Positions 1-18,309 of a stretch of 64,000 nucleotides of DNA are shown in pieces. The number at the start of each line of letters is the position of its first letter. Position 1 is the first letter of the stretch. Source of the DNA: an uncultured Alphaproteobacteria bacterium (GTDB lineage: Bacteria; Pseudomonadota; Alphaproteobacteria; RF32; CAG-239); assembly GCA_944391345.1 (NCBI GenBank), contig CALXTE010000003.1, positions 18,375 through 82,374 on the forward strand. Reading direction: 5' to 3'. The notes below the pieces were generated by a model, which was given only the letters and a program-made list of their open reading frames with translations, did no database searches and was not told where the DNA came from. A program made the translations under genes and the position numbers.

Positions 1-19
1 GATTGGAAGATGGATAATC

Positions 20-57
20 TTTTTTTGTTGACTTTTGTCTAATCCTGCTTTATATCC
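20..57 (+). promoter_or_regulatory. Promoter-like cassette copy 1: T-run + GTTGACTTTTGTCTAAT 17-mer (27..43) with TTGACT -35-like and TATATC -10-like, about 63 nt upstream of the ATG at 108
   Basis: 17-mer identical to copies at 6205..6221 and 16041..16057; same spacing to the start codon in all three. Confidence 0.5.
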
Positions 58-107
58 CAAATTAGCGATTTGTATTTTTTTATTTATAATTCTTAAATTT
101 TATTTTT

Positions 108-542
108 ATGGATAATGATAATATTCAATTTCCGTTGCCGGTTCTTTATCAAAATGGGTGTCAATCATTGGCACCTTTGAAAAATGGTCTTAGGCCTGTT
201 GCTATTGTTGTCGGTGAGTTTGCTTTTATGGATGCGGCATCAAAAAGGATGCTCTTATCGTCGGCTCGACGGCATTGCAAGTCTTTGCGCTTTAAATCTT
301 TTTGTATTTCTATGGGGAGTAAGCGTGCTTGGAATGCTTTGTTAGAAAGGTCATTGGAAGATTTTAACAAGACGGCCGCGCTAATTGGCTTTAAGCCGAT
401 CGTTTTTGACGCGCCTTATTGGTTTGATCAAAAAGAAAGAGCCGAATATAGTATGGGGATTGTTGGTTTTCACCGTGTGCGCAGTATGCCTTCTGATACA
501 CTTTTGTTTTATAAGGTGCGGCCGGTTATAAAACTGAAATGA
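108..542 (+). CDS. Hypothetical protein (144 aa), no recognisable family; no SD, AT-rich leader
   Basis: Intact ORF bounded by the cassette promoter element and the shared terminator. Confidence 0.45.
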   Translation: MDNDNIQFPLPVLYQNGCQSLAPLKNGLRPVAIVVGEFAFMDAASKRMLLSSARRHCKSLRFKSFCISMGSKRAWNALLERSLEDFNKTAALIGFKPIVFDAPYWFDQKERAEYSMGIVGFHRVRSMPSDTLLFYKVRPVIKLK

Positions 543-550
543 GTTTTTAG

Positions 551-578
551 AGCTCTGCTTTGTGCAGGGCTTTTTTTA
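551..578 (+). terminator. Rho-independent terminator GCTCTGCTTTGTGCAGGGC + T-run
   Basis: Hairpin plus T7; near-identical to the terminator at 6829..6857. Confidence 0.6.
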
Positions 579-644
579 TTTTGTGCTTGATTTTTTAAAA
601 ATTTATGGTATAAGGTTGACATAGTTGGGAATATTAGTTTGAAA

Positions 645-671
645 GTGGGGTCAAAAAACCCCGCTTTTTTG
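645..671 (+). promoter_or_regulatory. Terminator-like hairpin (GTGGGGTCAAAAAACCCCGC + T6) in the rimP leader, 28 nt upstream of the start codon; possible attenuator of the rimP-nusA-infB operon
   Basis: GC stem plus T-run directly upstream of an essential operon; TTGACA -35-like at 615..620. Confidence 0.35.
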
Positions 672-698
672 TTAACTTAGTTAAAAGGAATCGCCCTT

Positions 699-1202
699 AT
701 GCAGGAACATCCGCTTTATTCTTTAATTGAGCCCGTTGTTGAAAAAGAAGGCTATGAGCTTATTCGGGTTTTGACGGTAGGCGCTAAAAATCCGACTTTG
801 CAGGTTATGATTGATCGCAAAGACGGGAAAAATATTACGGTTGATGATTGTGCCAAAGTTAGTCGTGCCTTGTCTGATGTGCTCGATGATAAAGATCCTA
901 TCGAAAGTCAATATTCTTTAGAGGTCAGTTCTCCGGGAATTGATCGCCCATTGACTAAGCCGGAACATTTTAAGCGTTTTGTCGGATATGAGGCGAAAAT
1001 CGAAACCTCTTGCGAAATTGAGAAGAGAAAGCGCTTTAAGGGTAAAATTATTTCTATTGATAATAAAGGTGTTATCTCTTTTGAAATGGATGACAAAGTT
1101 TATGCCATTCCTTTTGCTGATGTGGCAAAGGCCAAAATTTTAATTACCGATGCGTTGTTGCAAGAATTTGCCGATGCACAAGAAAATTCTGATTTACAAT
1201 AA
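699..1202 (+). CDS. rimP: Ribosome maturation factor RimP
   Basis: Protein similarity (EVSSPGIDRPL motif), AAGGAA RBS, position before nusA. Confidence 0.9.
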   Translation: MQEHPLYSLIEPVVEKEGYELIRVLTVGAKNPTLQVMIDRKDGKNITVDDCAKVSRALSDVLDDKDPIESQYSLEVSSPGIDRPLTKPEHFKRFVGYEAKIETSCEIEKRKRFKGKIISIDNKGVISFEMDDKVYAIPFADVAKAKILITDALLQEFADAQENSDLQ

Positions 1203-1228
1203 CTTTTACAAATAATGAGGATTTAATA

Positions 1229-2773
1229 ATGGAAAATATGGAAAGCATGCCGAGACCGGAAATTATCTTAGTTGCCGATACTGTGGCTCGTGAAAAAAAT
1301 ATTGACCGCGAAGATGTGTTTACGGCAATGGAAGTTGCCATTCAAAAAGGTGCTCGCTCTAAATATGGTGCAGAGCATGATATTCGCGCTAAAATTGACC
1401 GCAAAACCGGTGCTATTGCTTTGTCTCGTTATCGTGAAGTTGTGGCTGATGATGCCATTATCGAAAATGAAGCGGCTCAGTTGCCTTTGAAATTGGCAAA
1501 AAATTATAAAGCTGATGCTAAAGTCGGTGATTTTTTGGTTGATGCTCTTCCGCCGATTGATTTTGGTCGTATTGCCGCTCAAACCGCAAAACAGGTTATC
1601 GTACAAAAAGTTCGTGAAGCTGAACGCAATAAGCAGTTTGAAGAATATAAAGAAAAAATCGGTACAATTGTTAACGGTACGGTTAAGAGAATCGAGTTTG
1701 GCAATGTTATTCTTGATATTGGTAAAACCGAGGCTATTTTGCGTCGTGATGAAATTATTCCGAGAGAAAAGTTTAAGAATGGCGACCGTATTCGTGCGTA
1801 TGTTCTTGACGTTCGTCGCGAAAACAAAGGTCCGCAAATCTTTTTATCTCGTACTTGCCCAGAATTTATGGCTAAGCTCTTTACCCAAGAAGTTCCGGAA
1901 ATTTATGACGGGATTGTTAAAATTATGGGGGTTGCCCGTGATCCGGGATCAAAGGCTAAGATTGCCGTTAAGGCAGATGATATGACGGTTGATGCCGTCG
2001 GCGCTTGTGTCGGATTGCGCGGTATCAGAGTTCAAGCGGTGGTTAATGAACTCCAAGGTGAAAAAATCGACGTTGTTCCTTATTCTGAAGACAAGGCACA
2101 GTATATTGTCAGCGCTTTAGCTCCGGCAGAAGTTACAAAAGTTGTTCTTGATGAGGAAAATAATCGTATTGAAGCGGTTGTGGCTCAAGACCAGTTCTCT
2201 ATTGCTATCGGTCGTCGCGGTCAGAATGTAAAGCTTGCTTCTCAGCTTTTGGGTTGCGATATTGATGTTTTGACCGAAGAACAAGAGCAAGAGCGTCGTT
2301 CTAATGAAAACAAGGTTCGTTCTCAGCGCTTTATGGAGGCTTTGGATGTTGATGAGATGATTGCGCATCTCTTGATTGCCGAAGGCTTTTCTACCGTTGA
2401 TGAGATTGCTTTGGTTGATTTGTCAGAGCTTTCTGAAATCGAAGGTTTTGATGAAGATGTGGCTAAAGAATTGCAGAATCGTGCAAAAGAATTTGTGGCT
2501 AAGCGCGATGCCGAATTTGCCGATAAGAAAAAGTCTCTCGGTATTGACGATCAGCTTATGGGTATCAATGGTTTGGACCAAGATATGATTTTGACCCTTG
2601 CTGAAAAAGGTGTTAAAACTCTTGATGATCTGGGTGATTTGGCGGCCGATGAGCTTATTGAAATGCTCGGTGAAAATGTTATTTCTCAAACCGAGGCCAA
2701 TAAAATCATCATGGAAGCCCGTGAGCACTGGTTTACTGATGAGGAAAATGCTTCTGACGGAGAAAAGCTGTAA
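1229..2773 (+). CDS. nusA: Transcription termination/antitermination factor NusA
   Basis: 514 aa with S1/KH/AR domains; TGAGGA RBS. Confidence 0.95.
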   Translation: MENMESMPRPEIILVADTVAREKNIDREDVFTAMEVAIQKGARSKYGAEHDIRAKIDRKTGAIALSRYREVVADDAIIENEAAQLPLKLAKNYKADAKVGDFLVDALPPIDFGRIAAQTAKQVIVQKVREAERNKQFEEYKEKIGTIVNGTVKRIEFGNVILDIGKTEAILRRDEIIPREKFKNGDRIRAYVLDVRRENKGPQIFLSRTCPEFMAKLFTQEVPEIYDGIVKIMGVARDPGSKAKIAVKADDMTVDAVGACVGLRGIRVQAVVNELQGEKIDVVPYSEDKAQYIVSALAPAEVTKVVLDEENNRIEAVVAQDQFSIAIGRRGQNVKLASQLLGCDIDVLTEEQEQERRSNENKVRSQRFMEALDVDEMIAHLLIAEGFSTVDEIALVDLSELSEIEGFDEDVAKELQNRAKEFVAKRDAEFADKKKSLGIDDQLMGINGLDQDMILTLAEKGVKTLDDLGDLAADELIEMLGENVISQTEANKIIMEAREHWFTDEENASDGEKL

Positions 2774-2813
2774 TGGCTTTTCTCCGCTTTGGCGGCTTTT
2801 GAGGTGAAACATA

Positions 2814-3383
2814 ATGGAAAAAGATATTCTTAGAAAATGTATTGCCAGCGGCGAGATAAAGTCTAAGACCGATATGCTCCGTTTTGTGTTGGTTAACGGC
2901 AATACGGTGGTGCCCGATTTTTATAAAAAACTGGCAGGTAAGGGTATCTATGTTTCTAATTCAAAAAAACTGCTCGAAACAGCCGTAAATAAGCATCTTT
3001 TTGCTAAAGTCACAAAGGGAAAAGCTCATGAGGAAGATGCTCTTGTTCAAATGGTTGAGGCTTTGTTGAAGAAAAAATGCTTTGATATGCTGAATTTGGC
3101 TCGTAAAGCCGGACAATTTGTTGCCGGTTTTGAAAAAGTTAAAGAGGCGATTGTGAAAAATAAAGCGGCTTTTTTGTTAGAGGCAGGTGATGCCGGCGAT
3201 GATGGTCATCAAAAGATTTTGGCCGTTGCCGGTGATTTGGAAATTTTTGATTTATTTACTGTTGAGGAGTTGGACAAGGCACTGGATAAGGTTAATACAG
3301 TTCATGCCGCTTTGCTTAAAGGCGATATGGCAAAGGCTGTTTATAGAGAACTAAAACGTTATGAGCAGTTTATAAATGCATAA
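2814..3383 (+). CDS. YlxR (DUF448)-like RNA-binding protein fused to an L7Ae-like domain, nusA-infB intergenic gene
   Basis: Motif LRFVLVNG...GKGIYV; conserved position between nusA and infB. Confidence 0.75.
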   Translation: MEKDILRKCIASGEIKSKTDMLRFVLVNGNTVVPDFYKKLAGKGIYVSNSKKLLETAVNKHLFAKVTKGKAHEEDALVQMVEALLKKKCFDMLNLARKAGQFVAGFEKVKEAIVKNKAAFLLEAGDAGDDGHQKILAVAGDLEIFDLFTVEELDKALDKVNTVHAALLKGDMAKAVYRELKRYEQFINA

Positions 3384-3413
3384 ATTAAAAAGACGATATG
3401 GAGAAAGATATTA

Positions 3414-5918
3414 ATGACAGAAGATAGTGCAAAAAGCAGATTGACATTATCAGGGAAGTCTACCCTTACCCTTAAAAATGTGGGTGATGGCGCTAAAAGC
3501 CATAATGACGGCAAAAAGGTCGTTCAGGTTGAGGTGCGCAAAAAAAGAATTATTTCTGCCGCAAAAAAAGAAGAACCAAAAGTGCAGATTGATGATGCTA
3601 CCGCTGCTAAGCTTAAACTGATTGCCGAAGCAAAAGAGCATGAGGCAAAACGTCGTCTTGAAGAAGAAGAAAAAGAACGTCAACGCCAGTTGCGTCGCGA
3701 GCAAGAAGAGGCTCTTAAAGCTCAAAAACAAGCTGAAGAACAAGAAAAAGAAAAGGCTCAGAGCCAGCAAAAAGCTGAAAACAAACCGGTCCAACAGCTT
3801 GAGCCTCAGGCTGAGATTAATCCTGAAAAATCGGCTGTGGCGGAAGAACGTGCGGTTGCAAAGGCTAAAGACAAAAAAACTCGTGATTTTGACGATGAAG
3901 AAGATAGTGATGATGAGGGCGCTTATCGTTCTCAAAAAGGCGGAAAATCTTTAAGCAAAGAAGAGGTTTTTGAACAAGAACGCAAGAAAATTATGAAGCG
4001 CAGCTTTGAACCGCAACGCCGCGGCGGCAAAGTTAATCTTCATAATGTTATGGGCGCAATGGATGATGATGACGATGATTATGGCTACGGAGCACCTCGT
4101 CGTCGTTTTAAGAAAAAACAGCCCAAGCCCCAACAAGCGCCGCAACAGCCGGCTGAAAAAATTGTAAAAGAAGTTGTTATTCCTGAAATTATTACTGTTC
4201 AGGAACTGGCTAACCGTATGGCAGAAAAGAGTGCCGAAGTTATTAAAAAACTGATGGCTCTCGGGGTTATGGCAACGATTAATCAGCCGATTGATGCTGA
4301 TACGGCTCAAATTGTGGTTGAAGAATTTGGACACAAGGTTAAACGTGTGGCAGATAGTGATGTGGAGCAAGGTTTGACCGGACCGGAAGACAAGGCTGAA
4401 GATTTGCAGCCCAGAGCACCGGTGGTTACGGTTATGGGACACGTTGACCATGGTAAAACATCTCTGCTTGATGCTTTGCGCGAAACCAATGTGGCCGCCC
4501 GTGAAGCCGGTGGTATTACCCAGCATATCGGTGCTTATCAGATTGAAGTTGCCGGTGGTAAAAAAATTACCTTTATTGATACGCCGGGGCATGAAGCATT
4601 TTCCGAAATGCGTGCTCGCGGTGCAAAAGTTACGGATATCGTTGTGTTAGTTGTGGCTGCTAATGATGGTATTATGCCGCAGACCGTCGAGGCTATTCGT
4701 CATGCTCAGGCCGCCGAGGTTCCGATTGTGGTGGCAATTAATAAAATTGATTTGCCCGGTGCAGATCCGATGAAAGTTAAAACAGCTTTGCTGCAGCACG
4801 GAATTGCCGTTGAAGAAATGGGCGGTGATAGTTTGTGCGCCGAGGTTTCTGCCAAAAAGAGAATTAATATCGACAAGTTGGTCGAAGCAATTTTGCTGCA
4901 GGCTGAAATCCTTGATTTGAAAGCTAATCCAAACCGTTTGGCACAAGGAGCGGTTATTGAAGCTAAAATGGAAAAAGGTCGTGGTTCTGTGGCTACGGTT
5001 TTGGTTCAAAACGGCACGCTTCGTGTCGGCGATATTTGTATTGCCGGAAAAGAATGGGGCCATATTCGCGCTATGTTTAATGAAAACGGCAAAAAAGTTA
5101 CCGAAGCCGGTCCGGCAACACCGGTCGAAATTCTTGGTTTGCAAGGAACACCGGCCGCCGGTGATGATTTTGTTATTGTTAAAGATGAGGCCCAAGCCAA
5201 AGAAGTTACCAATTATCGTATTCGCAAAGAGCGCGATGCAAAGCTGGTTAAGAGCGCAAAATCAGCTATGGAGCAAATGCTTGATAAGATTAAGTCCGGT
5301 GAAGTTAAACATCTTCCGGTTATTATCAAAGCTGATGTTCAAGGCTCTATCGAAGCGATTGAAGGTACCATCAAAAAACTCTCTAATGATGAAGTCAGTG
5401 TTCAGATTTTGCACTCTGCCGTAGGTCCGATTTCGGATTCAGATGTTACCTTGGCAAAGGCTTCAAATGCCTTTATTATCGGATTTAACGTTCGTGCTAT
5501 TCCGCATGCGCGTGATCTTGCTCGTCAAGACGGCGTTGATATTCGTTATTATTCCATTATCTATGATGTGGTTGATGATATTAAGAAAGCGCTGGAAGGA
5601 ATGTTAACCCCCGAACTTAAAGAAAAGATTATCGGTTATGCCGAAATTCGTAATGTCTTTAATATTACCGGTGTTGGTAAAGTCGGTGGTTGTATGGTTA
5701 CCGAAGGTTATGTTAAACGTGGCGCAAAAGTTCGCCTGTTGCGTGATAACGTTGTTATTCACGATGGTGCTCTTGCGCAGCTCAAACGTTTCAAAGAAGA
5801 CGTCCGTGAAGTAAAATCCGGTTATGAATGCGGTATGAGTTTTGAAAACTACAACGACATTCAAGTTGGTGATTTTATTGAGTGTTATGAGGTGGAGGAG
5901 ATAGCTCCAACCCTTTAA
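3414..5918 (+). CDS. infB: Translation initiation factor IF-2
   Basis: 834 aa; GTP-binding motifs [28 protein letters not shown]; K/E/Q-rich N-terminus. Confidence 0.97.
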
Positions 5919-5924
5919 AAGTTT

Positions 5925-6047
5925 ACTCTGTGGTCGACTAATACAGATTTTGCGGATAGGAAAAATGCTCATGTACTACTGTGTACACTGCGCTTTTTCC
6001 TTCCTTAAATCTTATTACTCGACTCATTCTCCAAACTTTTTGAAAAG
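5925..6047. repeat. Intergenic repeat unit, type 1 (...GGTCGACTAATACAGATTTTGCGGATAGGAAAAATGCTCATGTACTACTGTGTACACTGCGCTTTTTCCTTCC...CTCCAAACTTTTTGAAAAG), directly after the infB stop
   Basis: Near-identical to 10460..10590 and 11456..11580; internal inverted repeats GGATAGGAAAAATGC / GCGCTTTTTCCTTCC and GTGTACAC. Confidence 0.8.
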
Positions 6048-6154
6048 TCATCTAGAGGTATTTTACGCTGTCTCGAAAAATTCATGTACTATTTGTGTAC
6101 ACTAAAATTTTTCTCGCAGCTAGAAATGCCTCTATCTGTACTATTATCCCCAGT

Positions 6155-6189
6155 TTTAAGTTCGTATAATGGTCGACTAATACAGATTT
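6155..6189. repeat. Partial repeat head (AAGTTCGTATAATGGTCGACTAATACAGATTT) abutting the cassette promoter element; a degenerate core fragment lies at 6081..6112
   Basis: Matches the 5' end of type-1 units. Confidence 0.6.
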
Positions 6190-6197
6190 GGATATCG

Positions 6198-6236
6198 TTT
6201 TTTTGTTGACTTTTGTCTAATAATATTTTAGTCTTT
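6198..6236 (+). promoter_or_regulatory. Promoter-like cassette copy 2 (17-mer at 6205..6221)
   Basis: Exact 17-mer and T-run; about 60 nt upstream of the ATG at 6282. Confidence 0.5.
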
Positions 6237-6281
6237 TTTTGTTTTTTTTATTATGATGTCAAATTTAATAATTATACTTAT

Positions 6282-6824
6282 ATGGAAAAAAAAGAAGTTT
6301 TAGATCGGATTTTTGCTCTCATGAAGGATGCAGATATATCTCCGGAAGAAGTTGCCCATTATTTTGGCGGATATTTTGTAAAAAAGGGTGGGCCTCGAGA
6401 ACGTTTTTCGTTTGAAGTTATTTATGAGAATGATAAACGTTCATGGTTTCCTTTACAAGGCGTGCAGCCAAAGGCCTTGATTATTGCGGGAAAGGCTGTT
6501 TTTATTAACCATTCGACTGATCATTTAGATTGGTTTGAGTCCGGAAAATATTGCGAAGAACAAACTATTCTTGGTAAGAAATGTTCTTGCGGTGATCGGC
6601 ATTTTTGGCTGGTTGAGGTTCGACCACGCTTGACGCAGATTAATATTCAGCGTGTAAGAATGGGGTTTGAACCACTTTGTCCTCATGATATTTTGTGGAC
6701 AGACAACGAATGTGGACTCGGAAGAGGAGCCGGAATAGTTTATTTTTCCGGAAGTCCTGATAATCTTGAGGCCAGCGGAAAGCTTAATGCCTACTTTGCC
6801 TGTCCGGTTGCTTCTTTAGATTAA
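6282..6824 (+). CDS. Hypothetical Cys-rich protein (180 aa) with no recognisable family, occupying the usual rbfA position between infB and truB
   Basis: Intact ORF. The track start at 6213 is a TTG inside the promoter element; the first ATG is at 6282. Flanked by the cassette promoter and the shared terminator. Confidence 0.5.
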   Translation: MEKKEVLDRIFALMKDADISPEEVAHYFGGYFVKKGGPRERFSFEVIYENDKRSWFPLQGVQPKALIIAGKAVFINHSTDHLDWFESGKYCEEQTILGKKCSCGDRHFWLVEVRPRLTQINIQRVRMGFEPLCPHDILWTDNECGLGRGAGIVYFSGSPDNLEASGKLNAYFACPVASLD

Positions 6825-6828
6825 GAAA

Positions 6829-6857
6829 AAGCTCTGCTTATGCAGGGCTTTTTTTGG
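6829..6857 (+). terminator. Rho-independent terminator GCTCTGCTTATGCAGGGC + T-run
   Basis: Near-identical to 551..578. Confidence 0.65.
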
Positions 6858-6933
6858 TTTTAAATCAGTTGACAGGGGGCGGTTTATCCTTTATCACCTT
6901 CGGTATAAGGTTTTAATGTTACGGAATTTTGGA

Positions 6934-7839
6934 ATGAAACATAAGGGGCAAGACATAAACGGTTGGTTGATTATAGATAAACCTCGCGGAATGGGCTCAA
7001 CCGAGGTTGTGCGCCGTACAAAACGTATTTTTAAGGCAAAGAAAAACGGGCATGCCGGAACACTTGATCCTTTTGCTACCGGAGTTTTGCCGATTGCTTT
7101 CGGTGAGGCGACAAAACTTTTGCCGTTTGTAACCGACGGGGTTAAAGAATACGAATTTGTGGTGCAGTGGGGGGCCGCGACTAATACCGATGATTCTGAC
7201 GGTGAAATTATTAAGCGCTGTGATAAAATTCCGACGCAAGAAGAAATTCTTAATATTTTGCCAGCGTTTTTAGGCAAAATCATGCAGGTGCCGCCGGCTT
7301 ATTCCGCTCTTAAAATAAACGGGCAGAGAGCCTATGATTTGGCGCGGAAAGGGGTTGACTTTTCTATTCCGCCGCGCGAGGTTGAAATTTTTGAGCTTGA
7401 ACTTGTCGAAATTCTGCCGGCGAATCGGGCAAAGTTTCGCGTGGTTTGTTCAAAAGGAACTTATGTGCGCACTTTGGGACATGATATTGCTCAAAAACTC
7501 GGTACTTTGGGCTATTTGCAGGAGCTTCGGCGTTTAAAATGCGGGCAATTTGACCTTAGACATAAAATTTTACTGGAAAATTTAGAAAATATGGTGTATG
7601 GTGATGCCCTAAATGAAGTTTTGCTTCCGATAGAAACATTTCTGTGCGACATCACGGTTATTGCTGTTTCGGAAGTTGAGGCCGCTAAGCTTAAACTCGG
7701 GCAGGCGCTCTCGCCAAAGGCTTTTGATGTTCAAAAGCTTGTCGGGCAAGAGGCGGTTGCCGTTTGTGAGGGAAAGCCGGTGGCCGTGGTGCGAATCGAG
7801 GAGCGCAGAATTGCTCCCGTTCGTGTGTTTAATCTTTAA
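6934..7839 (+). CDS. truB: tRNA pseudouridine(55) synthase TruB (alternative start at 6916)
   Basis: Motif [11 protein letters not shown]...GHAGTLDP; TTGACA/TATCAC promoter-like at 6873..6900. Confidence 0.9.
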
Positions 7840-7862
7840 AATTAAAAAAAGGAAATATACAG

Positions 7863-8132
7863 ATGTCGATTAGTCAAGATGAAGTTAAAGATATTGTCAG
7901 CAAATTTGGTTTGAATCCGAATGATACCGGTTCTCCGGAAGTTCAAATCGCTATTTGGACCGCTCGTATTAACAAACTTATTGAACATTTTAATGTTCAT
8001 AACAAAGATTTGCACTCTCGTTTGGGCTTGATGAAGATGGTTAGCCGTCGTCGTCACTTGCTCGACTATCTTAAAGCTAAAAACAGCGACAGATATCAGA
8101 ACATTATTAAAAAGCTGGATCTGCGTAAGTAA
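7863..8132 (+). CDS. rpsO: 30S ribosomal protein S15
   Basis: 89 aa, strong similarity; RBS AAGGAAA. Confidence 0.97.
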
Positions 8133-8224
8133 GAGACTTTTGGCGTTTGGAGGGAAGAGGCCGTTTTTCTTTTAGCGGCAAAGAAAGTTTTTAGCTTTTG
8201 GCTCTTTCTTCCAAGCGCTTTTTT

Positions 8225-8246
8225 GCCCCTCGGGGCTTTTGTTTTA
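8225..8246 (+). terminator. rpsO terminator GCCCCTCGGGGC + T-run
   Basis: GC hairpin followed by TTTTGTTTT. Confidence 0.6.
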
Positions 8247-8268
8247 ATTATTATGCTTTATTAAAAAT

Positions 8269-8295
8269 CCCGTGACTTTTATGACCAAGTCAGGG
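8269..8295 (+). promoter_or_regulatory. pnp 5' leader hairpin (CCCGTGACTT...AAGTCAGGG), candidate RNase III / autoregulatory site
   Basis: Long imperfect stem about 50 nt upstream of the pnp start; analogous to the known pnp leader architecture. Confidence 0.35.
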
Positions 8296-8341
8296 TGAGG
8301 TTTATAAAGATGTTAAAGATGTTATGAAAGGTGTTTGAAAT

Positions 8342-10459
8342 ATGGTCGAATTGAATATTTGCCGCAAAGAATTGGATTGGGGCGGCAGAAAATTGGTGTT
8401 GGAAACAGGTAAAGTTGCGAAGCAGGCTCTCGGTGCCGTTGAGGCTACTTATGGCGGAACAACGGTTTTGGCTACCGTTTGTGCTGCAAAAGAGGCTGCG
8501 CCCGATCAGGATTTCTTCCCTTTGACCGTTAACTATCAAGAAAAATATTATGCTACCGGTAAAATCCCCGGCGGATTTATGAAACGCGAAGGCAAGCCTT
8601 CCGAGCGCGAAGTGCTTATCTCTCGCTTGATTGACAGACCTATTCGTCCGCTGTTTCCGGATGCTTTTAAAAATGAAGTTCAAGTTATTTGTACCGTTCT
8701 TTCTCATGACCAGCAGACAGATTCCGACGTTGTGGCGATGATTGCCGCTTCCGCCGCTTTGGCAATTTCGGGTATTCCGTTCCTCGGGCCTATCGGTGCT
8801 GCTAAAATCGGTTATAAAAATGGTGAATATATCTTGAACCCGACAATTGAACAGCAAAAAGAATCTGAACTTGAGCTGGCAGTGGCCGGTACATCCGAAG
8901 GTGTGCTGATGGTTGAATCTGAGGCTCAGGAGTTGTCCGAAGAAACCATGCTTGGCGCGGTTATGTTCGGATTTGAAAACTTCCAGCCGGTTATTGCCAT
9001 GATTAACGAAATGGTTAAAGAAGCCGGAAAGCCGCGTTGGGAAATGCCGAAATTCCCGCCGGAGTTTGATGAACTCTACAACAAGCTTGAAAAAGGCTTT
9101 ATCTCTAAGTTTGAAGAAGCTTTCAAAGAAACCGATAAACTGAAACGCGGTGAGCTTGTTGCTCAGGCTTCTGAAGAGTTTAAGGCAACCCTTGATCCGG
9201 AAAATGAGTTTGAACAAAAGTTTGCTCAAGATGCTATCGAAAAATTGATGCACAAAGTTGTTCGTGAAAAAGTTTTGACAACCGGCAAACGTATTGACGG
9301 TCGTGATACCAAAACCGTTCGTCCGATTTGGTGCGAAGTTGATGTTTTGCCGATGGCTCATGGCTCAGCTATCTTTACTCGTGGTGAAACTCAGGCTTTG
9401 GTTGTTACAACCTTGGGTACGGGCGAAGATGCTCAAATTGTTGACGGTTTGATGGAAGAATATAAAGAAGACTTTATGCTGAACTATAACTTCCCGCCGT
9501 TCTCGGTTGGTGAATGTGGTCGTATCGGTAGCCCCGGACGTCGTGAAATTGGTCACGGAAAATTGGCTTGGCGTGCTATTCACCCGATGATGCCGAAAAA
9601 TAAAGATACTTTCCCTTATACCGTTCGCGTTGTTTCTGAAATTTTGGAATCAAATGGTTCTTCTTCAATGGCAACGGTTTGCGGAACAACAATGTCTTTG
9701 ATGTCGGCCGGTGTGCCAATGGCTAAACCAGTTGCCGGTATTGCTATGGGCTTGATTAAGGAAGATGACGGGCGTGTGGCTGTCTTGACCGATATTCTCG
9801 GTGATGAAGACCACCTCGGCGATATGGACTTCAAGGTTGCCGGTACAAAAGACGGTGTTACCGCTTTGCAGATGGATATTAAAATCACATCAATCACCAA
9901 AGATATTATGAAAACTGCTTTGGCTCAGGCTCATGAAGGTCGTATCCATATTTTGGGTGAGATGGCAAAGGCTATTTCTGAACCGCGTCCTCATGTTTCG
10001 GACAAAGCACCGCGTATTGTTGCAATTAAGATTCCGGTTGATAAAATTCGTGAAGTTATCGGTTCAGGCGGTAAGGTTATTCGTGAAATTACTGAAAAAA
10101 CGCACTGCAAAATTGATATCAGTGACGACGGTGTTATCAAAATCGCTTCGCTCAAAAAAGAAGACGGTGATGCCGCTCTTGAATGGATTACCGGTATTGT
10201 TGCCGAGCCGGAAGAAGGCAAAATCTATCATGGTGTTATTACCAAGATTATGGATTTTGGCGCTTTTGTTCGCTTCCTTGGAACAACCGAAGGTCTGGTT
10301 CACATTTCTGAAGTCAAGAATGAGCGCATTGCTTCCGTTTCCGACTTCTACAAAGAAGGTGACTCAATTTGGGTAAAATGTCTTGGCACGGACAACCGCG
10401 GCAAGGTTAAGCTTTCTGCGAAGAGAGTTAATCAGGAGACTGGGGAAGACCTCGAATAA
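8342..10459 (+). CDS. pnp: Polyribonucleotide nucleotidyltransferase (PNPase)
   Basis: 705 aa with RNase PH x2, KH and S1 domains; RBS AAAGGTG. Confidence 0.97.
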
Positions 10460-10600
10460 AAAAGTTCGTATAATGGTCGATTAATACAGATTTAGCGGAT
10501 AGGAAAAATGCTCATGTACTTCTATGTACACTGCGCTTTTTTCTTCCTTAAATCTTATTACTCGACTCATTCTCCGAACTTTTTGAAAAGTTCGTGTTAA
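10460..10600. repeat. Intergenic repeat unit type 1, directly after the pnp stop
   Basis: About 90% identical to 5925..6047 and 11456..11580. Confidence 0.8.
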
Positions 10601-10603
10601 AAA

Positions 10604-10634
10604 CAAAGAGATTGTTTTGCAATCTCTTTGTTTG
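10604..10634. terminator. Bidirectional terminator (CAAAGAGATTG-TTTTG-CAATCTCTTTG) between pnp (+) and the HTH gene (-)
   Basis: Perfect 11-bp stem with flanking A/T runs. Confidence 0.7.
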
Positions 10635-10635
10635 T

Positions 10636-10878
10636 TTAAGATGCTTTGATGAGTTCAAATTTTAATTTATAATTATAAATGGCGGCGATGACGGCGACGC
10701 GTCTTAATCCAAAAGCTCGGCCTTGTTCGACATTTTTAATCCGGCGGCGTGACAATCCGCTTATTTTTGATATATTATCAATGCTTAATTGGTGTTCTTG
10801 TCTAAGTTCATATAATCTCTTTCCGACTTCGGCTCGATTATCTTCTAAATAAATGATTTGTTCTTTTTTTATTCCCAT
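10636..10878 (-). CDS. XRE/Cro-type helix-turn-helix transcriptional regulator (80 aa)
   Basis: Motif QLSIDNISKISGLSRRRIKNVEQG; perfect AAGGAG RBS 8 nt before the ATG at 10878 (the longer track start at 10914 lacks an RBS). Confidence 0.7.
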   Translation of the reverse strand: MGIKKEQIIYLEDNRAEVGKRLYELRQEHQLSIDNISKISGLSRRRIKNVEQGRAFGLRRVAVIAAIYNYKLKFELIKAS

Positions 10879-10914
10879 TTTTTCAGCTCCTTTTTTATTT
10901 TGTGGTAAAAACAA

Positions 10915-11060
10915 AGCCTGCCAAGAAGGCAGGCGGAGCTAAACAACTGTTTACACACAGTCACCGTTATTCAATATATTAGCGGTACTCCGCCCAAAAG
11001 CGGAGGATTTTATTATTATGTAGGTGTTGTTTAGGCACCGTCGGTTACCTCTAACCGACA
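10915..11060 (-). other. Structured non-coding region upstream of the HTH gene with three hairpins (CCTGCC..GGCAGG, CTCCGC..GCGGAG, CGGTTA..TAACCG); the first acts as a terminator on the minus strand
   Basis: Inverted repeats read directly; no ORF. Confidence 0.2.
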
Positions 11061-11094
11061 ATGTGAGTATAAATAATGGTGATAGAGTTTGCAA

Positions 11095-11292
11095 GGAAAA
11101 GTTTGTATAACGGGCAACTAATACAGATTTAGCGGGTCTCCTCCATCCTCACGTACTACTTTGTACGCTGCGGTGTCGTCGCCCTAAAATCTTATTATTT
11201 GCCTCGTTCTCCAAACTTTTACAAAGTTTATATAACGGGTAACTAATACAGATTTAGCGGGTCTCCTCCATCCTCACGTACTAGTTTGTACC
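11095..11292. repeat. Repeat cluster part 1: type-2 unit (11095..11225) plus a truncated type-2 head (11226..11292)
   Basis: Shared AACTAATACAGATTTAGCGGGTCTCCTCCATCCTCACGTACTA core; related to type 1 at both ends. Confidence 0.75.
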
Positions 11293-11394
11293 AATTCCGA
11301 CTAAACCTTTGTTGCGAAAGCTGTCGCATTCTAACAAAGGAAAGTCTCATTGCTTATCCTTAAAGAAAGCACATTCAAGTGCTTTCTTTTGCGG
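11293..11394 (+). ncRNA. Candidate small RNA or insert inside a split repeat unit; two hairpins, the second (AGAAAGCAC-ATTCAA-GTGCTTTCT + TTTTG, 11364..11394) is an intrinsic terminator on the + strand
   Basis: Unique about 100 nt between a repeat head (11226..11292) and the matching repeat tail (11419..11455); terminator orientation. Confidence 0.25.
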
Positions 11395-11418
11395 CAGTGA
11401 TACTTTTGCCCTTGACGC

Positions 11419-11607
11419 CTACTACTCGACTCATTCTCCGAACTTTTTAAAAAACTCGTATAATGGCCGATTAATACAGATTTTGCGGATAGGAAAAATG
11501 CTCATGTACTTCTGTGTACACTGCGCTTTTTCCTTCCTTAAATCTTATTACTCGACTCATTCTCCAAACTTTTTGAAAAAACTCGTATAACGGGCAACTA
11601 ATACAGT
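11419..11607. repeat. Repeat cluster part 2: type-1 tail (11419..11455), full type-1 unit (11456..11580), type-2 head (11581..11607)
   Basis: Direct sequence identity with the other copies. Confidence 0.8.
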
Positions 11608-11628
11608 GTTATAAAGCTAGCAAATATT

Positions 11629-12201
11629 CTACGAATGTTGTTTTTGGCCGATGAGGTTGGAGTAAGCGGCCATGCCTTTTTCCAGTAAAGTCGGCAGGGT
11701 TTCGCTTATCATATCAATCTCGGCTAAAATGGTTTCTTTATCAGCTTTTGAAAAGCCGCCTAAAACATAATTTACAACTTCTTCGCCGTGTCCTTGCGGG
11801 TGGCCGACGCCAATGCGGATGCGGTTGTAATTCGGTGTAATTGCGGCGTCAATGGATTTTAGCCCGTTATGTCCGCCGGCGCCGCCGCCAAGCTTGGCTT
11901 TGAGTTTGCCGACCGGCAAGTCCATGTCGTCATGGATAACCACAATATTTTGCGGTAAAATCTTATAAAAAGAAGCGGTTTTAACGACAGAATTGCCGGA
12001 TAGATTCATAAAAGTTTGCGGCTTTAGCAAATAAACCTTTTCATTGCCGATTTTTCCTTCGGCAATGAGGCCGTCAAACTTGTTTTTAAACGTTCCGAAC
12101 GCATAGTTTTCATGCAGAGCATCAGCCGCCATAAATCCGACATTGTGGCGGGTGCCTGAATATTCTGCTCCGGGGTTTCCTAAACCGACAATCAAAAACA
12201 T
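11629..12201 (-). CDS. pth: Peptidyl-tRNA hydrolase
   Basis: Motif MFLIVGLGNPG...HNG. Confidence 0.95.
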   Translation of the reverse strand: MFLIVGLGNPGAEYSGTRHNVGFMAADALHENYAFGTFKNKFDGLIAEGKIGNEKVYLLKPQTFMNLSGNSVVKTASFYKILPQNIVVIHDDMDLPVGKLKAKLGGGAGGHNGLKSIDAAITPNYNRIRIGVGHPQGHGEEVVNYVLGGFSKADKETILAEIDMISETLPTLLEKGMAAYSNLIGQKQHS

Positions 12202-12213
12202 ATTTTTTTACCT

Positions 12214-12241
12214 TCAAAAAAAACGGGAGCTTGGCTCCCGT
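12214..12241 (-). terminator. rplY terminator (CGGGAGC-TTG-GCTCCCG + T-run on the minus strand)
   Basis: Hairpin with adjacent A8 on the plus strand. Confidence 0.6.
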
Positions 12242-12311
12242 TCTATGAGCAATTCATCATCGCAAAGCCCATCCGAGAGAAGCATAGTGGACGACTTTCA
12301 CGATGAAAAAT

Positions 12312-12602
12312 TTACTTTCTGAGAAAATCGACGTGAATAGCTTTGTCGCTAACCGGATGAAATTGAACATCCTGACATTTAACGGCATAGTTTTTACCGT
12401 CAACGTTAACGTCAATGTCAAAGCTGTATAAGCCAGCCATATCCAAAGCTTTTTCAACTTGAACAGGGTCAAGACTAATCATGACCGGAGCTTCTTTTCC
12501 ACCATAAATTACGGCAGGAATACGGCCCTCACGACGACATGCGCGAGCTGCCCCCTTACCTGCTGTTTCACGCTTTTTAGCATTAAAAATAAAATCAGCC
12601 AT
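12312..12602 (-). CDS. rplY: 50S ribosomal protein L25, short (E. coli-like, 96 aa) form
   Basis: Similarity to short L25 (IPAVIYGG...); no Ctc C-terminal extension. Confidence 0.88.
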   Translation of the reverse strand: MADFIFNAKKRETAGKGAARACRREGRIPAVIYGGKEAPVMISLDPVQVEKALDMAGLYSFDIDVNVDGKNYAVKCQDVQFHPVSDKAIHVDFLRK

Positions 12603-12733
12603 TTTTAAAATTCCTTTATTAAAAAAACAAATTTTGTGCCTTAAAACCTCCAGGGGTGTTCTAAAGCAAATTCTGTTTACCGCTTATTTGTTTAAAATGC
12701 AAGAACTTTTTTGCAAAAATATTTGATTTCTCA

Positions 12734-12772
12734 TAAAAAAATACAGAGCTGTTTGGGCTCTGTATTTTTTTG
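12734..12772. terminator. Bidirectional terminator (ATACAGAGC-TGTTTGG-GCTCTGTAT flanked by A7/T7)
   Basis: Perfect stem with A/T runs. Confidence 0.65.
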
Positions 12773-12775
12773 TTT

Positions 12776-13153
12776 TTATTCTTCTTTGGGAATTTGTTCT
12801 TCCAGCTTGTGTGATTCTGTGCCGATTTTTGTGCTGACGTAAAAGCTCAAAATTACCGGAAGAATGTACTTCATAAAGTTTTCAGTGACACCGGTTAAAA
12901 TAAAGGTGTTTATAACAGAATAGTTTAATGCTAAAACAAATAAACTCCACATTTTTTCATTCAGATGTTTTAGTTTGGTAATTTTATTTTCGTTTTTTTC
13001 CTGTTTTTTTAAGATGTCGTTAAACTTACTTTTTAAATAGGAAAAATATGCAAAAGATAAAATCACCAGTAGAAACATAATAATCAGGTAGAGATTTTCT
13101 AATACGACTTCTTTCATAACATCAAATTTTTGTTGTTTATAATAAAAACACAA
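12776..13153 (-). CDS. Small integral membrane protein (3 predicted TM helices), unknown function
   Basis: Hydrophobic segments; AT-rich; alternative start at 13117. Confidence 0.5.
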   Translation of the reverse strand: MCFYYKQQKFDVMKEVVLENLYLIIMFLLVILSFAYFSYLKSKFNDILKKQEKNENKITKLKHLNEKMWSLFVLALNYSVINTFILTGVTENFMKYILPVILSFYVSTKIGTESHKLEEQIPKEE

Positions 13154-13174
13154 GCAGCATTTGTTTTCTATAGA

Positions 13175-13654
13175 TTAAGCTGTTTCCGGTTCAACTTTTA
13201 GCCGATCACTGGTGCAGACGATGACCTTTACGGCCACTGTGTCACCGATTTTGTATTTTTGACGAGAAGCATTAACCAGCTCTGCCGGAAAACTCTCGTC
13301 TTTGTTGGCTATATTAAGTTCACCAAAAATTCGTCCGCTTTCTATTCTCTCTACTTTGAAAAAATGAGTTTCATTTTCCATAACGGCTTTAAACTCGTTT
13401 TCTACAAATGATAAAGAATATAGATTGGTTCCTAGTCCGAACACAATTGCCCCGTAAATCCAGCGACTGCTTAATACATCATGAAAATAACAAATGATGC
13501 TGAAAACAATCAAAAGGAAAAAACAAAATAAAACCCATAACTTCCATAAAAGTTGTTTGTCAAAGTTCCAAAAGGGGGTTTTGAACAGTGCATAAAAGAA
13601 ATTTGCCAGATTTCCTAAAATGATAATCCACAAAAAAATTTCAAGCGTTTCCAT
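13175..13654 (-). CDS. Membrane protein (159 aa): N-terminal 3 TM helices plus C-terminal beta-rich soluble domain; paralog of 13764..14243
   Basis: About 30% identity with its neighbour along the full length; conserved 5' region. Confidence 0.6.
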   Translation of the reverse strand: METLEIFLWIIILGNLANFFYALFKTPFWNFDKQLLWKLWVLFCFFLLIVFSIICYFHDVLSSRWIYGAIVFGLGTNLYSLSFVENEFKAVMENETHFFKVERIESGRIFGELNIANKDESFPAELVNASRQKYKIGDTVAVKVIVCTSDRLKVEPETA

Positions 13655-13730
13655 AACAATAAGGTTTATAGATTAATAATCAAAATAATAGTTCTCTGAT
13701 TTTCAAGTAGCATTTTAATTTTAAAGAGTC

Positions 13731-13766
13731 AAACAAAAAGGAGAGCCCAAAGCTCTCCTTTTTTTA
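13731..13766 (-). terminator. Terminator between the two paralogs (AGGAGAGC-CCAAA-GCTCTCCT with A/T runs)
   Basis: Hairpin plus T-run on the minus strand. Confidence 0.55.
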
Positions 13767-14243
13767 ATTTTCAGCAGGTTCAACAATGATTTCATTCGGA
13801 TGGCACAGCAGAACTCTGACCGGAATAATTTCACCATAGTGATAATCGGCATAAAGCGGACATACGAGCCGCGCTTCAACAGTTTCTTTAGTGCTATGAA
13901 TGGCTAATGTTCCTCGCACTTTATTGTTTTGCCACGATGTTAGGCGAAATAGATGAATTTCTCCATACATAACGGAGTTAAATTTTTCATCAAGAAGATG
14001 TCTGCTAATTAGCCCCATAATGACGGTAAGCACAATTATTGCCAAATACCATGCTTGTTGGGCATTTTCTTTTTGAAAATAAACATAGCTTAAAATGCCA
14101 AGTACTAAAATACACAAGCCATTAGCCGTTTTCCAAAAAGAACGTTTGTAGTCGTTCAGAAATGGTCGTTTGATAACGGCATAGATAAATTCCAATAGGA
14201 ATAAGGTGCAAATAAGACCCATAAAAAATTCAAGTGCTGTCAT
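13764..14243 (-). CDS. Membrane protein (159 aa), paralog of 13175..13654
   Basis: Same architecture; upstream 14244..14310 about 85% identical to 13655..13730. Confidence 0.6.
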   Translation of the reverse strand: MTALEFFMGLICTLFLLEFIYAVIKRPFLNDYKRSFWKTANGLCILVLGILSYVYFQKENAQQAWYLAIIVLTVIMGLISRHLLDEKFNSVMYGEIHLFRLTSWQNNKVRGTLAIHSTKETVEARLVCPLYADYHYGEIIPVRVLLCHPNEIIVEPAEN

Positions 14244-14345
14244 AAAAATAAGGTTTTATAAATTAATAACTAAAATAATAATTCTCTGATTTTTAAGTAG
14301 CACCTTGTGACAAAAATGTCAAATAAAAGATTTATGCTTTGGTTC

Positions 14346-14816
14346 TTAGCCTTGAGGGAAGAGGTGGGTTTGGCGCAAGCCTTCACCCAAGACCATGGCC
14401 GCCGAAATCGCCATATTAATCGAACGAGCGTTTTTGTTCATCGGGATTAAAAGCCGTGCATCAACAGTTTCATGAACTTCTTGCGGAACGCCGGCGCTCT
14501 CTCTGCCCATTAAGATAATGTCGTTTTTTGCAAAACTGAACTCAGTATAAGGATTTGACGCATGAGTGGTCATTAAAACCAAGCGCCCGTATTCTTCGGG
14601 ATGGCTTTGGCGAAAAGCTAAGAAATCTTGCCAAGAATTATGTCGGCGGTAGGATACTTGTTCCAGATAGTCCATACCGGCGCGGTGCATGGCTTTTTCA
14701 TTAAAAATAAAGCCGCAAGGTTCAATGATATCCAGAGCAACGTCCAAACAAGCCCCAAGCCGCAGTAATGTGCCGGTATTTTGCGGAATGTCGGGTTGAA
14801 ACAAAGCTAAGCGCAT
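14346..14816 (-). CDS. trmL: tRNA (cytidine/uridine-2'-O)-methyltransferase TrmL (SpoU family)
   Basis: 156 aa, SPOUT motifs. Confidence 0.8.
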   Translation of the reverse strand: MRLALFQPDIPQNTGTLLRLGACLDVALDIIEPCGFIFNEKAMHRAGMDYLEQVSYRRHNSWQDFLAFRQSHPEEYGRLVLMTTHASNPYTEFSFAKNDIILMGRESAGVPQEVHETVDARLLIPMNKNARSINMAISAAMVLGEGLRQTHLFPQG

Positions 14817-14832
14817 TTTTTTGCCTTACCAT

Positions 14833-15945
14833 TTATACATTGAACAAGAAGAGTAAGACATCGCCGTCTTGGACGACATAGTCTTTGCCTTCGGAGCGGA
14901 CTTTTCCGGCTTCTTTGCAGCCTTGTTCGCCGCCAAATTTGATGAAGTCATCAAAGGAAATGGTTTCGGCGCGGATGAAGCCTTTTTCAAAGTCAGAGTG
15001 GATGATTCCGGCGCATTGCGGGGCTTTTGAGCCTTTGATAAAAGTCCATGCCCGAACTTCCTTTGGTCCGCAAGTGAAGTAAGTTTGCAAGCCTAAAAGC
15101 TTGTAGCCGGCGCGGATAATCTTGGCTAAGCCGGTTTCTGACAAGCCTAAAGAGTCCAAAAATTCTTTTTTCTCTTCTTCATTATCAAGCTGGGCAACTT
15201 CGGATTCGATTTCGGCCGAGATAATGACCGCTTCGGTTCCTTCTTTTTTGGCACGTTCTTCAACTTGTTTAGAAAACTCATTGCCCTCAGCGGCGGAAGC
15301 TTCATCGACATTGCAAACGTATAAAACCGGTTTTGAGGTTAAAAGCTGGAGCATTTCGTATTGTTTATAAGCCTCTTTATCCGATTTATCCGGTGCGGCG
15401 GAACGTGCCGGTTTGCCGGCGCGAAGAGCTTCGATAATCGGTTCCATAACTTGGGCGCGGATTTTGGCCTCTTTGTCACCACCGGTTTGGGCTTTTTTCT
15501 TGGTTTGTTCAAAGCGTTTTTCCAAAGACTCTAAGTCGGCAATCATTAACTCGGTTTCGACAATGTCGGCGTCGCGAATGGGGTCTACCGAGCCTTCGAC
15601 ATGGGTGATGTTGTCGTCTTCAAAACAACGCAAAACGTGAATAATCGCGTCGACCTCACGGATGTTGGCCAAAAACTGGTTGCCTAAGCCTTCGCCTTTA
15701 GACGCACCTTTTACTAATCCGGCAATGTCAACAAATTCAAGTTGAGTCGGCGTGACCATGCGTGGTTTTACAATTTCGGTCAGCTGTTTTAATCTTTCGT
15801 CCGGAACGGCGACGCGGCCGGTGTTCGGCTCAATCGTGCAAAACGGAAAATTTGCCGCCTGTGCCGCAATCGTTTGTGTTAAAGCGTTAAACAACGTCGA
15901 TTTTCCGACATTCGGCAAACCGACTATTCCGCAATTAAACCCCAT
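14833..15945 (-). CDS. ychF: Ribosome-binding ATPase YchF
   Basis: Motif [18 protein letters not shown]; TGS domain. Confidence 0.95.
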
Positions 15946-16032
15946 TAAAAAAACTCCTTAAAAACAAAATCTTAAAAATTGATTTGGTTATAACCGAATT
16001 CAATTGAGATTGCAACCGCTTTTTTGAGGTGG

Positions 16033-16075
16033 TTTTTTTTGTTGACTTTTGTCTAATTGGTGGTATGTTAGGTTC
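16033..16075 (+). promoter_or_regulatory. Promoter-like cassette copy 3 (17-mer at 16041..16057) upstream of thyA
   Basis: Exact 17-mer plus T-run, 57 nt before the thyA ATG. Confidence 0.5.
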
Positions 16076-16114
16076 AATTCACTTTATTATTAATTCTTAA
16101 AATATTATTTTTTT

Positions 16115-16900
16115 ATGAAACAGTATCTTGATTTACTTAAAGACATTATTGAAAACGGTCATGACAAAGAAGACCGCACCGGTACAGGAACACGCTCGGT
16201 TTTTGGACGTAGTATGAGGTTTGATTTATCGCAAGGATTTCCACTACTGACAACAAAGCGGATGTTTCTGAAAGGTGTGATTTCCGAGCTGTTGTGGTTT
16301 GTCAAAGGGGACACAAATATTGAGTTCCTGCATGATAACGGTGTTCATATCTGGGATGAATGGGCTGATGAAAAAGGTGACCTCGGGCCTATCTATGGCG
16401 CGCAATGGCGCAACTGGGATAACCTTGGTATCGACCAATTGCAAAAGCTGGTGAAAGATATCAAAAACACGCCGGACAGTCGACGGCTTATTGTTTCGGC
16501 TTGGAATCCTACGCAGCTTGATGATATGGCTTTGCCGCCGTGCCATATGATGTATCAATGCTATGTGCAAGACGGGAAGCTGTCGCTTATGATGTATCAG
16601 CGTAGTGGTGATATGTTTCTCGGTGTGCCGTTCAACATTGCCTCTTATGCCTTGCTGACCATGATGTTAGCGCAAGTCTGTGGGCTTGAAGCCGGTGAGT
16701 ATATTCATGTTTTGGGTGATGCTCATATCTACAAAAACCACTTTGCGCAGGTGAAAGAACAACTCTCTCGTGAGCCGTATCCTCTGCCAAAGATGATTTT
16801 GAACCACAAGGTTCATGAAATCGATGGCTTTACGCTTAAAGATTTTACGCTGGAAGGATATCAGTATCATCCGGCGATTAAGGGAAAAGTTTCGGTTTAA
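16115..16900 (+). CDS. thyA: Thymidylate synthase ThyA
   Basis: 261 aa, PCH catalytic motif; not adjacent to folA. Confidence 0.97.
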
Positions 16901-16916
16901 ATTTTTTTCTTTGTTT

Positions 16917-16946
16917 CGGGGTTGCCTGCGGGCAGCCCTTTTTTTA
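16917..16946 (+). terminator. thyA terminator (GGGTTGCCTGCGGGCAGCCC + T7)
   Basis: GC hairpin plus T-run. Confidence 0.6.
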
Positions 16947-18305: not shown

Positions 18306-18309
18306 GCGA

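Follow-up and report, generated by a model that had tools for sequence, protein, structure and literature searches.

Immediately downstream of lptG, in a DNA stretch of 64,000 nucleotides from an uncultured alphaproteobacterium (the window), lies a small open reading frame, ORF144, which is preceded by a promoter-like element and followed by a hairpin. The same arrangement recurs further along the window around a second open reading frame, ORF180. The question raised by this locus is what kind of protein such a unit encodes, and how two units with the same control elements came to lie among housekeeping genes. The explanation favoured here, with moderate confidence, is that ORF144 and ORF180 are self-contained expression units of variable ligand-binding lectin-like proteins, the alleles of which are exchanged between strains by recombination.

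ORF144 and its locus

The window starts immediately past lptG, and the order of genes is the end of lptG, ORF144, rimP, nusA, ylxR, infB (to 5918), a repeat-rich gap, ORF180, truB, rpsO and pnp (Table 1). ORF144 is a genuine protein-coding gene. Orthologues retrieved by a word-indexed protein search are 56–98% identical, and the lptG–rimP slot is the position of ORF144 in every relative recovered, including three MAG species representatives. Pairwise omega values range from 0.06 to 0.42; this, being well below 1, and the conservation in relatives show that the frame is not spurious. The sequence-only reading that first drew attention to the locus had proposed absence or disruption in all close relatives as the sign of a spurious frame; the gene is instead present in each of them, with its frame conserved.

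The GC content of positions 1..500 is 0.376, near that of the surroundings. Searches with tblastn find no ORF144 homologues in phage and plasmid records, and there is no usable match in Pfam, NCBIfam, PADLOC (known anti-phage defence) or PHROGs (phage families). Rfam and tRNA scans of positions 1..20000 return nothing. Those ORFs of the first 20 kb that can be identified have the appearance of housekeeping genes, and neither an integrase nor a transposase is apparent among them (a check against Pfam covered some of these ORFs).

Table 1. Positions of the features discussed, numbered along the window unless a relative is named.
Feature	Position	Strand	Description
Invariant 24-mer TTTTTTTGTTGACTTTTGTCTAAT	20..43	+	T tract, −35-like TTGACT, conserved TTTGTCTAAT block
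Putative −10 TATATC	51..56	+	17 nt after TTGACT; read directly from the sequence
AU-rich leader	57..107	+	Without Shine-Dalgarno; ends in TAATTCTTAAATTTTATTTTT directly 5' of ATG
ORF144	108..542	+	ATG start, 144 aa, 144 codons; from the ORF list
Intrinsic terminator hairpin of ORF144	549..577	+	Followed by a U run; −15.8 kcal/mol, z −4.3
rimP leader	580..698		Promoter-like TTGATT-16-TATAAG
Terminator-like hairpin GTGGGGTCAAAAAACCCCGCTTTTTT	about 645..670		−16 kcal/mol, z −5.2; directly 5' of the rimP Shine-Dalgarno
rimP	699..1202		
Intergenic repeats of ~127 nt	5916..6190, 10459..10595, 11096..11610	+	Conserved blocks GGTCGAYTAATACAGATTT, TTATTACTCGACTCATTCTCC; palindrome CGAACTTTTTGAAAAGTTCG
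24-mer, copy 2	6198..6221	+	Exact match; putative promoter of ORF180
ORF180	6282..6824	+	180 aa; ORF144 paralogue with an extra helical N-terminal segment of ~35 residues, then the same domain
Terminator of ORF180	6824..6857	+	Followed by a U run; −19.3 kcal/mol, z −4.7
Small HTH_3 (Xre-type) regulator gene	10636..10914	−	Between 127-nt repeat blocks, downstream of pnp
Adjacent paralogous ORFs	13175..13654, 13764..14243	−	159 aa each
24-mer, copy 3	16034..16057	+	Exact match; upstream of thyA
thyA	16115..16900		Pfam Thymidylat_synt, 1e-123
Paired family ORFs after infB in L009	14277..14813, 14930..15472		
Paired family ORFs after infB in L011	7957..8493, 8613..9152		
Paired family ORFs after infB in L010	14228..15251	−	

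A rare family of small proteins

ORF144 and ORF180 are paralogues, with 23% identity over 116 aa (BLASTP, E 2e-9), and are not independent cargo. ORF180 scores 5e-54 against the family HMM; its homologues are P0006–P0012, and the 64 kb contain no family copy beyond these two ORFs. Among 1.84 billion representative proteins, a joint-profile search delineates a family of 61 clusters at E ≤ 1e-3, and a word-indexed protein search with the family profile returns at least nine proteins. The members are 140–200 aa long, with the consensus FEV.Y.DG..S..P..GK.P.GVI...M.W..A..YC....G..C..G...FW....N....LGG.PL....YWT....VRPV..L. ORF144 is a single-domain small lectin-like protein of this rare, unnamed family, which has been seen so far mainly in uncultured Alphaproteobacteria.

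Most members carry a short helical N-terminal segment, which ORF144 lacks; in the 180-aa forms this segment gives insignificant matches only (H-NS_N at 0.0018, RecX_HTH1, YolD). On inspection by eye, a hydrophobic signal at the N-terminus is missing from ORF144, from ORF180 and from all 60 family sequences listed. Since the members appear to lack signal peptides, the proteins are probably cytoplasmic. A few members are tandem two-domain fusions (P0014, P0015 and P0016, 318–372 aa; P0019, 542 aa), and one of these continues C-terminally into a long unrelated stretch, the product perhaps of gene fusion or of a frameshift artefact.

Predicted fold and relationship to Lcl_C/DUF1566

The AlphaFold2 (AF2) model of ORF144, computed on an alignment of 57 sequences, has a pLDDT of 89.9 and a pTM of 0.85. 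It replaces a first model on 10 sequences (pLDDT 76.4), for which all fold matches were weak. In a Foldseek search of the PDB, all 50 matches listed are C-type lectin-like domains (CTLDs), at E ≥ 0.056 and TM of about 0.3–0.5; they include snake-venom snaclecs, mannose-binding protein, the Yersinia invasin InvE and the C-terminal domain of Legionella Lcl, a trimer (Lcl-CTD, 8q4e). The BFVD matches (E 2.4e-4 to 8e-3, probability 0.99–1.0) are gut-phage proteins, viral C-type lectins and a 'DUF1566 domain-containing protein' (target-normalised TM 0.62). On the model, the fold class is C-type-lectin-like. The Lcl-CTD is a CTLD without disulfides that has been likened to snake-toxin and invasin C-type lectin-like domains, and the PDB neighbours of the ORF144 model are the same set as those published for it (PMC11162425).

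At the level of sequence profiles, ORF144 gives no match to Pfam Lcl_C (PF07603) at E ≤ 1 and stays below the gathering cut-off of 34.9 bits. The cut-off is exceeded by the family member P0025 (40.8 bits, 3e-10, residues 84–179), and seven other members or related ORFs match weakly (E 0.0064–0.19). An hhalign comparison of the ORF144 orthologue profile with P0025 (probability 95.8%, E 7.8e-9, 134 columns) pairs ORF144 residues 7–142 with P0025 residues 46–181, and this spans the Lcl_C-matching stretch 84–179. Because of the fold matches and this bridge through P0025, the ORF144 family is placed as a divergent branch of Lcl_C/DUF1566 with a C-type-lectin-like fold, in which ORF144 itself lies below the Pfam threshold and the export signals typical of known members are not apparent. 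The core pattern W..A..YC, YW(S/T) and VR.V of the family consensus is one that we take to be shared with the Pfam Lcl_C family. Profile searches and structure prediction had been named as checks in the sequence-only reading, and they bear on its view of the protein as one with no assignable motif: the 61-cluster family that they delineate is named by no library, as that view would have it, but the CTLD-like model and the divergent Lcl_C/DUF1566 relationship can be assigned.

ORF144 resembles Lcl-CTD/DUF1566 (PF07603) in its predicted C-type-lectin-like fold without disulfides, the model matching both 8q4e and the phage DUF1566 protein. The DUF1566 proteins known so far are exported, as adhesins, lipoproteins or the tips of phage fibres, and are often multi-domain (PMC11162425); the ORF144 family, in contrast, consists of stand-alone domains of 140–200 aa in which no signal peptide is seen on inspection by eye. 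Structurally, the closest PDB matches are eukaryotic and viral CTLDs (snaclecs, NK receptors, EBV gp42), which reach a TM of about 0.5 at no significant sequence similarity (weak profile matches, E 0.2–1). They differ in their canonical disulfide pattern, which is not seen in ORF144-family sequences, and the latter are bacterial and apparently cytoplasmic.

A putative promoter and leader module

The 19-mer TTGTTGACTTTTGTCTAAT, which contains the promoter element first noted, occurs at exactly three sites in the 64 kb (25..43, 6203..6221 and 16039..16057), where shuffled sequences lead one to expect none. The identity of the three copies extends to the 24 nt of TTTTTTTGTTGACTTTTGTCTAAT; the copy upstream of thyA is additional to the sites of the sequence-only reading. 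A relaxed motif search of the window adds sites at chance level only.

The arrangement TTGACT–17 nt–TATATC is plausibly a sigma-70-type promoter with a weak −10; it was read from the sequence, and a simple promoter scanner does not list it. Other copies of the module have TAnnnT at the position equivalent to the putative −10, and the module is predicted on such features to be active as a promoter. Sigma-70 promoters need no specific sequence in the spacer; since TTTGTCTAAT is conserved just there, it suggests an operator or an extended promoter element. None of the known alphaproteobacterial operators (the CtrA, LexA, NrdR and Fur boxes) fits this block in a by-eye comparison. The leader of ORF144 is unstructured, folding no better than shuffles (z 0.12). 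Its sequence block is kept in orthologues whose ORFs diverge, and it resembles the AU-rich leader of thyA and those of other family copies.

The module is associated with the lectin-like family. The 24-mer is conserved at orthologous loci, and in other genomes it also precedes distant members of the family; the exact 17-mer occurs twice in L014 and once in L015 before proteins that are only ~20–25% identical to ORF144. A metagenome collection scanned for the 21-mer TTTTRTTGACTTTTGTCTAAT contains 10 sites in 8 loci. Eight of these have a family ORF downstream, with 48–58 nt from the end of the motif to the ATG; of the other two, one lies 5' of a Cys-rich signal-peptide protein and one at a contig end. 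Of 21 distinct family ORFs for which sufficient upstream sequence is available, ~16 have the 16-mer, with up to two mismatches, 44–64 nt before the ATG, and ~5 lack it. An alignment of ten such regions displays the invariant block, then, 16–17 nt downstream of it, a −10-like position containing TA, and finally a second block rich in AU, ATTTAT.ATTAAT.AAAAT.TATAATT, which abuts the ATG without a Shine-Dalgarno sequence. In viral contigs, the 42 matches to the 16-mer look like chance for the size of the collection, and no such locus encodes a family member.

The module is not exclusive to the lectin-like family, given that in L061 (729..1640) the 21-mer precedes a non-family, Cys-rich ORF of at least 293 aa with a signal peptide. 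Because it also precedes thyA, it may serve as a strong promoter of general use, or as the operator of a regulon, and not be a family-specific part. The contigs returned by a look-up of thyA all carry an identical thyA protein.

Terminators

A GC-rich hairpin followed by a U run, as expected of an intrinsic terminator, ends the ORF144 unit and is conserved in relatives. Its stems, GCTCTGC...GCAGGGC, are common to only this site and the terminator of ORF180 within the window, with no such coincidence expected by chance. The two terminators match at ~25 of 27 positions with one indel (a hand count on the printed sequences), which bears out the identity of about 90% reported earlier. The unit first described for ORF144, with promoter element, ORF and terminator, is therefore real, resting on three exact 24-mers and a strong hairpin at 549..577, and its counterpart, again with promoter, ORF and terminator, is confirmed at 6198..6857.

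A hypervariable coding region between conserved flanks

The coding region of ORF144 is hypervariable among genomes that are nearly identical elsewhere, and its tree is incongruent with that of its flanks. Between the window and its relatives (L001 and L007–L011), protein identity is ~95% for RimP and 98–99% for NusA, and 56–93% for ORF144. Against L010 and L011, nucleotide identity is mostly 0.82–1.0 in the flanks and 0.50–0.80 in the interior of ORF144 (mostly 0.50–0.65). The shift falls at the ends of the ORF; promoter, leader, terminator and rimP leader are almost invariant.

The ORF144 alleles form three groups, A (window, L001, L009), B (L008) and C (L007, L010, L011). Between groups, dN is 0.20–0.39 and omega 0.14–0.42, and dS is 0.88–1.96, a range to which saturation in this AT-rich gene could contribute in part; in rimP and nusA, the same pairs of genomes have a dS of 0.1–0.6. 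Between L001 and L011, for example, dS is 0.147 in rimP and 0.95 in ORF144; between the window and L001 it is 0.344 in rimP and 0.153 in ORF144. Trees of the ORF144 alleles and of the flanking rimP and nusA disagree. The raised dS and the incongruent trees argue for old alleles that have been moved by recombination, and against simple relaxation in place.

Omega is below 1 everywhere, which indicates purifying selection within alleles and gives no direct proof of positive selection. The dN of ORF144 peaks in the C-terminal third, where it reaches 0.6–0.7 against group C, with omega there roughly 0.5–0.8. This third may be the counterpart of the variable loop region of CTLDs.

Variable slots and intergenic repeats

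The slot after infB holds one family ORF in the window, two in L009 and L011, and two on the opposite strand in L010. The extra copies in these three relatives are without the 16-mer motif. In L012, the same slot holds an ORF ~26% identical to ORF180, although infB shows 93% identity over its C-terminal 657 residues; the ORF before rimP in this relative is also a weak match to the family model (2e-7). The slot that is held by thyA in the window (16034..16900) is occupied in L015 (280..910) by a family member, P0029, behind the same module. The genes downstream of this slot agree in order: a 453/457-aa protein (67% identical), ApbA, RsmB and LeuRS.

Intergenic repeats of ~127 nt occur in the window, all on the same strand. 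They lie directly upstream of the ORF180 promoter, and they also adjoin family cassettes in L009 (13800..14200) and L015 (1..270). They have no Rfam match, and may be marks of recombination-prone slots. One small regulator gene of the Xre type is situated between repeat blocks. In many bacteria, rbfA sits between infB and truB; here it is absent, and the interval (5919..6915) consists of 127-nt repeats and ORF180. In L009, the ORF180 homologue has no truB after it.

Proposed mode of action and alternatives

In the favoured explanation, each unit consists of a ~90-nt expression module, an ORF and an intrinsic terminator. The module combines a T tract, TTGACT as the −35 joined directly to the invariant TTTGTCTAAT, a −10 that is weak, and a leader that is AU-rich and lacks a Shine-Dalgarno sequence. 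Transcription would start at the conserved module and may be governed by a dedicated regulator; translation would follow from the AU-rich leader; and the product would be a cytoplasmic variable binding protein. Homologous recombination in the conserved flanks would exchange alleles or paralogues among strains, with selection keeping the diversity. The ORF144 alleles are much older than the flanking DNA, and their distribution is incongruent with it. By analogy with DUF1566/C-type-lectin folds elsewhere, the ORF144 protein may be a variable ligand-recognition module, and its binding role would lie in some conflict, with phage, toxin or host.

The alternative that survives best, unlikely as we consider it to be, is an ordinary regulon or strong promoter: the 24-mer would serve a lineage-specific regulator as operator and promoter, or be a strong promoter and nothing else, and would be kept identical by selection before co-regulated genes, and the ORFs would evolve fast in place under relaxed constraint, with no exchange. 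The motif does stand before thyA and before the non-family gene in L061, conservation of leader and motif extends to loci at which the ORF has diverged, and an omega of 0.3–0.4 between alleles is moderately high, rising to roughly 0.5–0.8 in the C-terminal third. Relaxed evolution in place, however, raises dN and not dS, and the dS of ORF144 is 2–8 times that of adjacent genes in the same genome pairs, which disfavours it. The conflict of the allele tree with the rimP and nusA trees, and the differences between slots in copy number, orientation and paralogue identity, likewise point to exchange.

A more far-reaching version of exchange, which we regard as rather doubtful, would make the ~90-nt module and the terminator chromosomal 'expression slots' with exchangeable ORFs and no dedicated recombinase; the cytoplasmic DUF1566-like proteins would then form a strain-specific intracellular recognition repertoire, for immunity or defence, under one dedicated regulator. 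A related alternative concerns function only and is compatible with the anatomy of the units. It would have the proteins as orphan immunity or defence specificity proteins, which in the cytoplasm would bind and neutralise variable toxins or would sense the proteins of phages, their diversity being maintained by frequency-dependent selection. Small proteins without signal peptides, hypervariable between strains, each with a promoter of its own and in L014 and L060 present as tandem paralogues, would suit such a role; against it stand the lack of a PADLOC match and a neighbourhood of housekeeping genes with no adjacent toxin, secretion or defence gene. To our knowledge, no CTLD-type immunity family has been described, and this reading of the function appears doubtful to a somewhat greater degree.

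The proposal that two unrelated ORFs were acquired together, as mobile cassettes bringing their own promoter and terminator, takes up the joint acquisition suggested in the sequence-only reading, and we now find it improbable. The shared 24-mer and similar terminators speak for it, as do the 127-nt repeats flanking ORF180 and the varying copy number and orientation after infB. The ORFs are paralogous, however, and occupy conserved slots on either side of rimP–nusA–infB in all relatives examined, that of ORF144 between lptG and rimP being constant. The GC content is not aberrant, phage and plasmid homologues are lacking, no integrase or transposase is apparent in the first 20 kb, and thyA shares the promoter.

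Integron cassettes and the recombinase-associated arrays of orphan immunity genes in gut Bacteroidales are short one-gene units with repeated flanks and with variable copy number or content at fixed slots. The ORF144 family likewise comprises short one-gene units with repeated flanking sequence, whose copy number and content vary between strains at fixed chromosomal slots. It differs in that neither an integrase or recombinase nor a 3' site resembling attC is seen, in that each unit has its own promoter-like module, and in that the units are scattered among housekeeping genes and not gathered in one array. An integron-type cassette would be a promoterless ORF with a 3' attC and an adjacent integrase; the 3' element of ORF144 is a plain terminator.

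Among the targets of diversity-generating retroelements (DGRs) in human microbiomes, DUF1566 is the most common variable domain (PMC4159848). DGR variable proteins (Mtd, TvpA, DUF1566 targets) share with ORF144 the fold class, a variation-tolerant scaffold, and divergence that is greatest C-terminally (PMC4159848). That ORF144 is itself the variable protein of a DGR is highly improbable despite this precedent. Its variation is allelic between strains, and divergence spans the whole of ORF144, synonymous sites included. The 64-kb window holds no template-repeat-like copy of ORF144 DNA and no reverse transcriptase (DnaB is the only long ORF with a YxDD motif), and the DGR reading was rejected on these grounds. 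As for a spurious ORF in a non-coding spacer, which the missing database name and Shine-Dalgarno sequence might suggest, the frame conserved over 56% amino-acid divergence, omega below 0.42, a confident fold model and a 61-cluster family leave it next to no probability.

DUF1566/Lcl_C domains are familiar as modules of exported adhesins or of phage receptor binding. What is new in the favoured explanation, exchange of variable lectin-like alleles between strains, is a stand-alone DUF1566/Lcl_C-fold branch without signal peptides, diversified through deeply diverged alleles and paralogues in fixed slots between housekeeping genes, and coupled to an almost invariant putative promoter and leader that persist across species even at ~20–25% protein identity. 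If correct, it would give an uncultured lineage a natural expression module of compact size, and it would provide a marker for variation among strains and a lead to a recognition or conflict system in these alphaproteobacteria.

Neighbouring features

Two further observations concern other parts of the window. The rimP leader is almost invariant across relatives and contains, besides its promoter-like sequence, a terminator-like hairpin; it looks like a transcription attenuator of the rimP–nusA–infB operon, and possibly serves autoregulation by NusA. The adjacent pair of paralogous 159-aa ORFs further downstream is membrane-like by eye and without a Pfam match; the regions upstream of the two ORFs are 71% identical (13633..13738 and 14223..14328).
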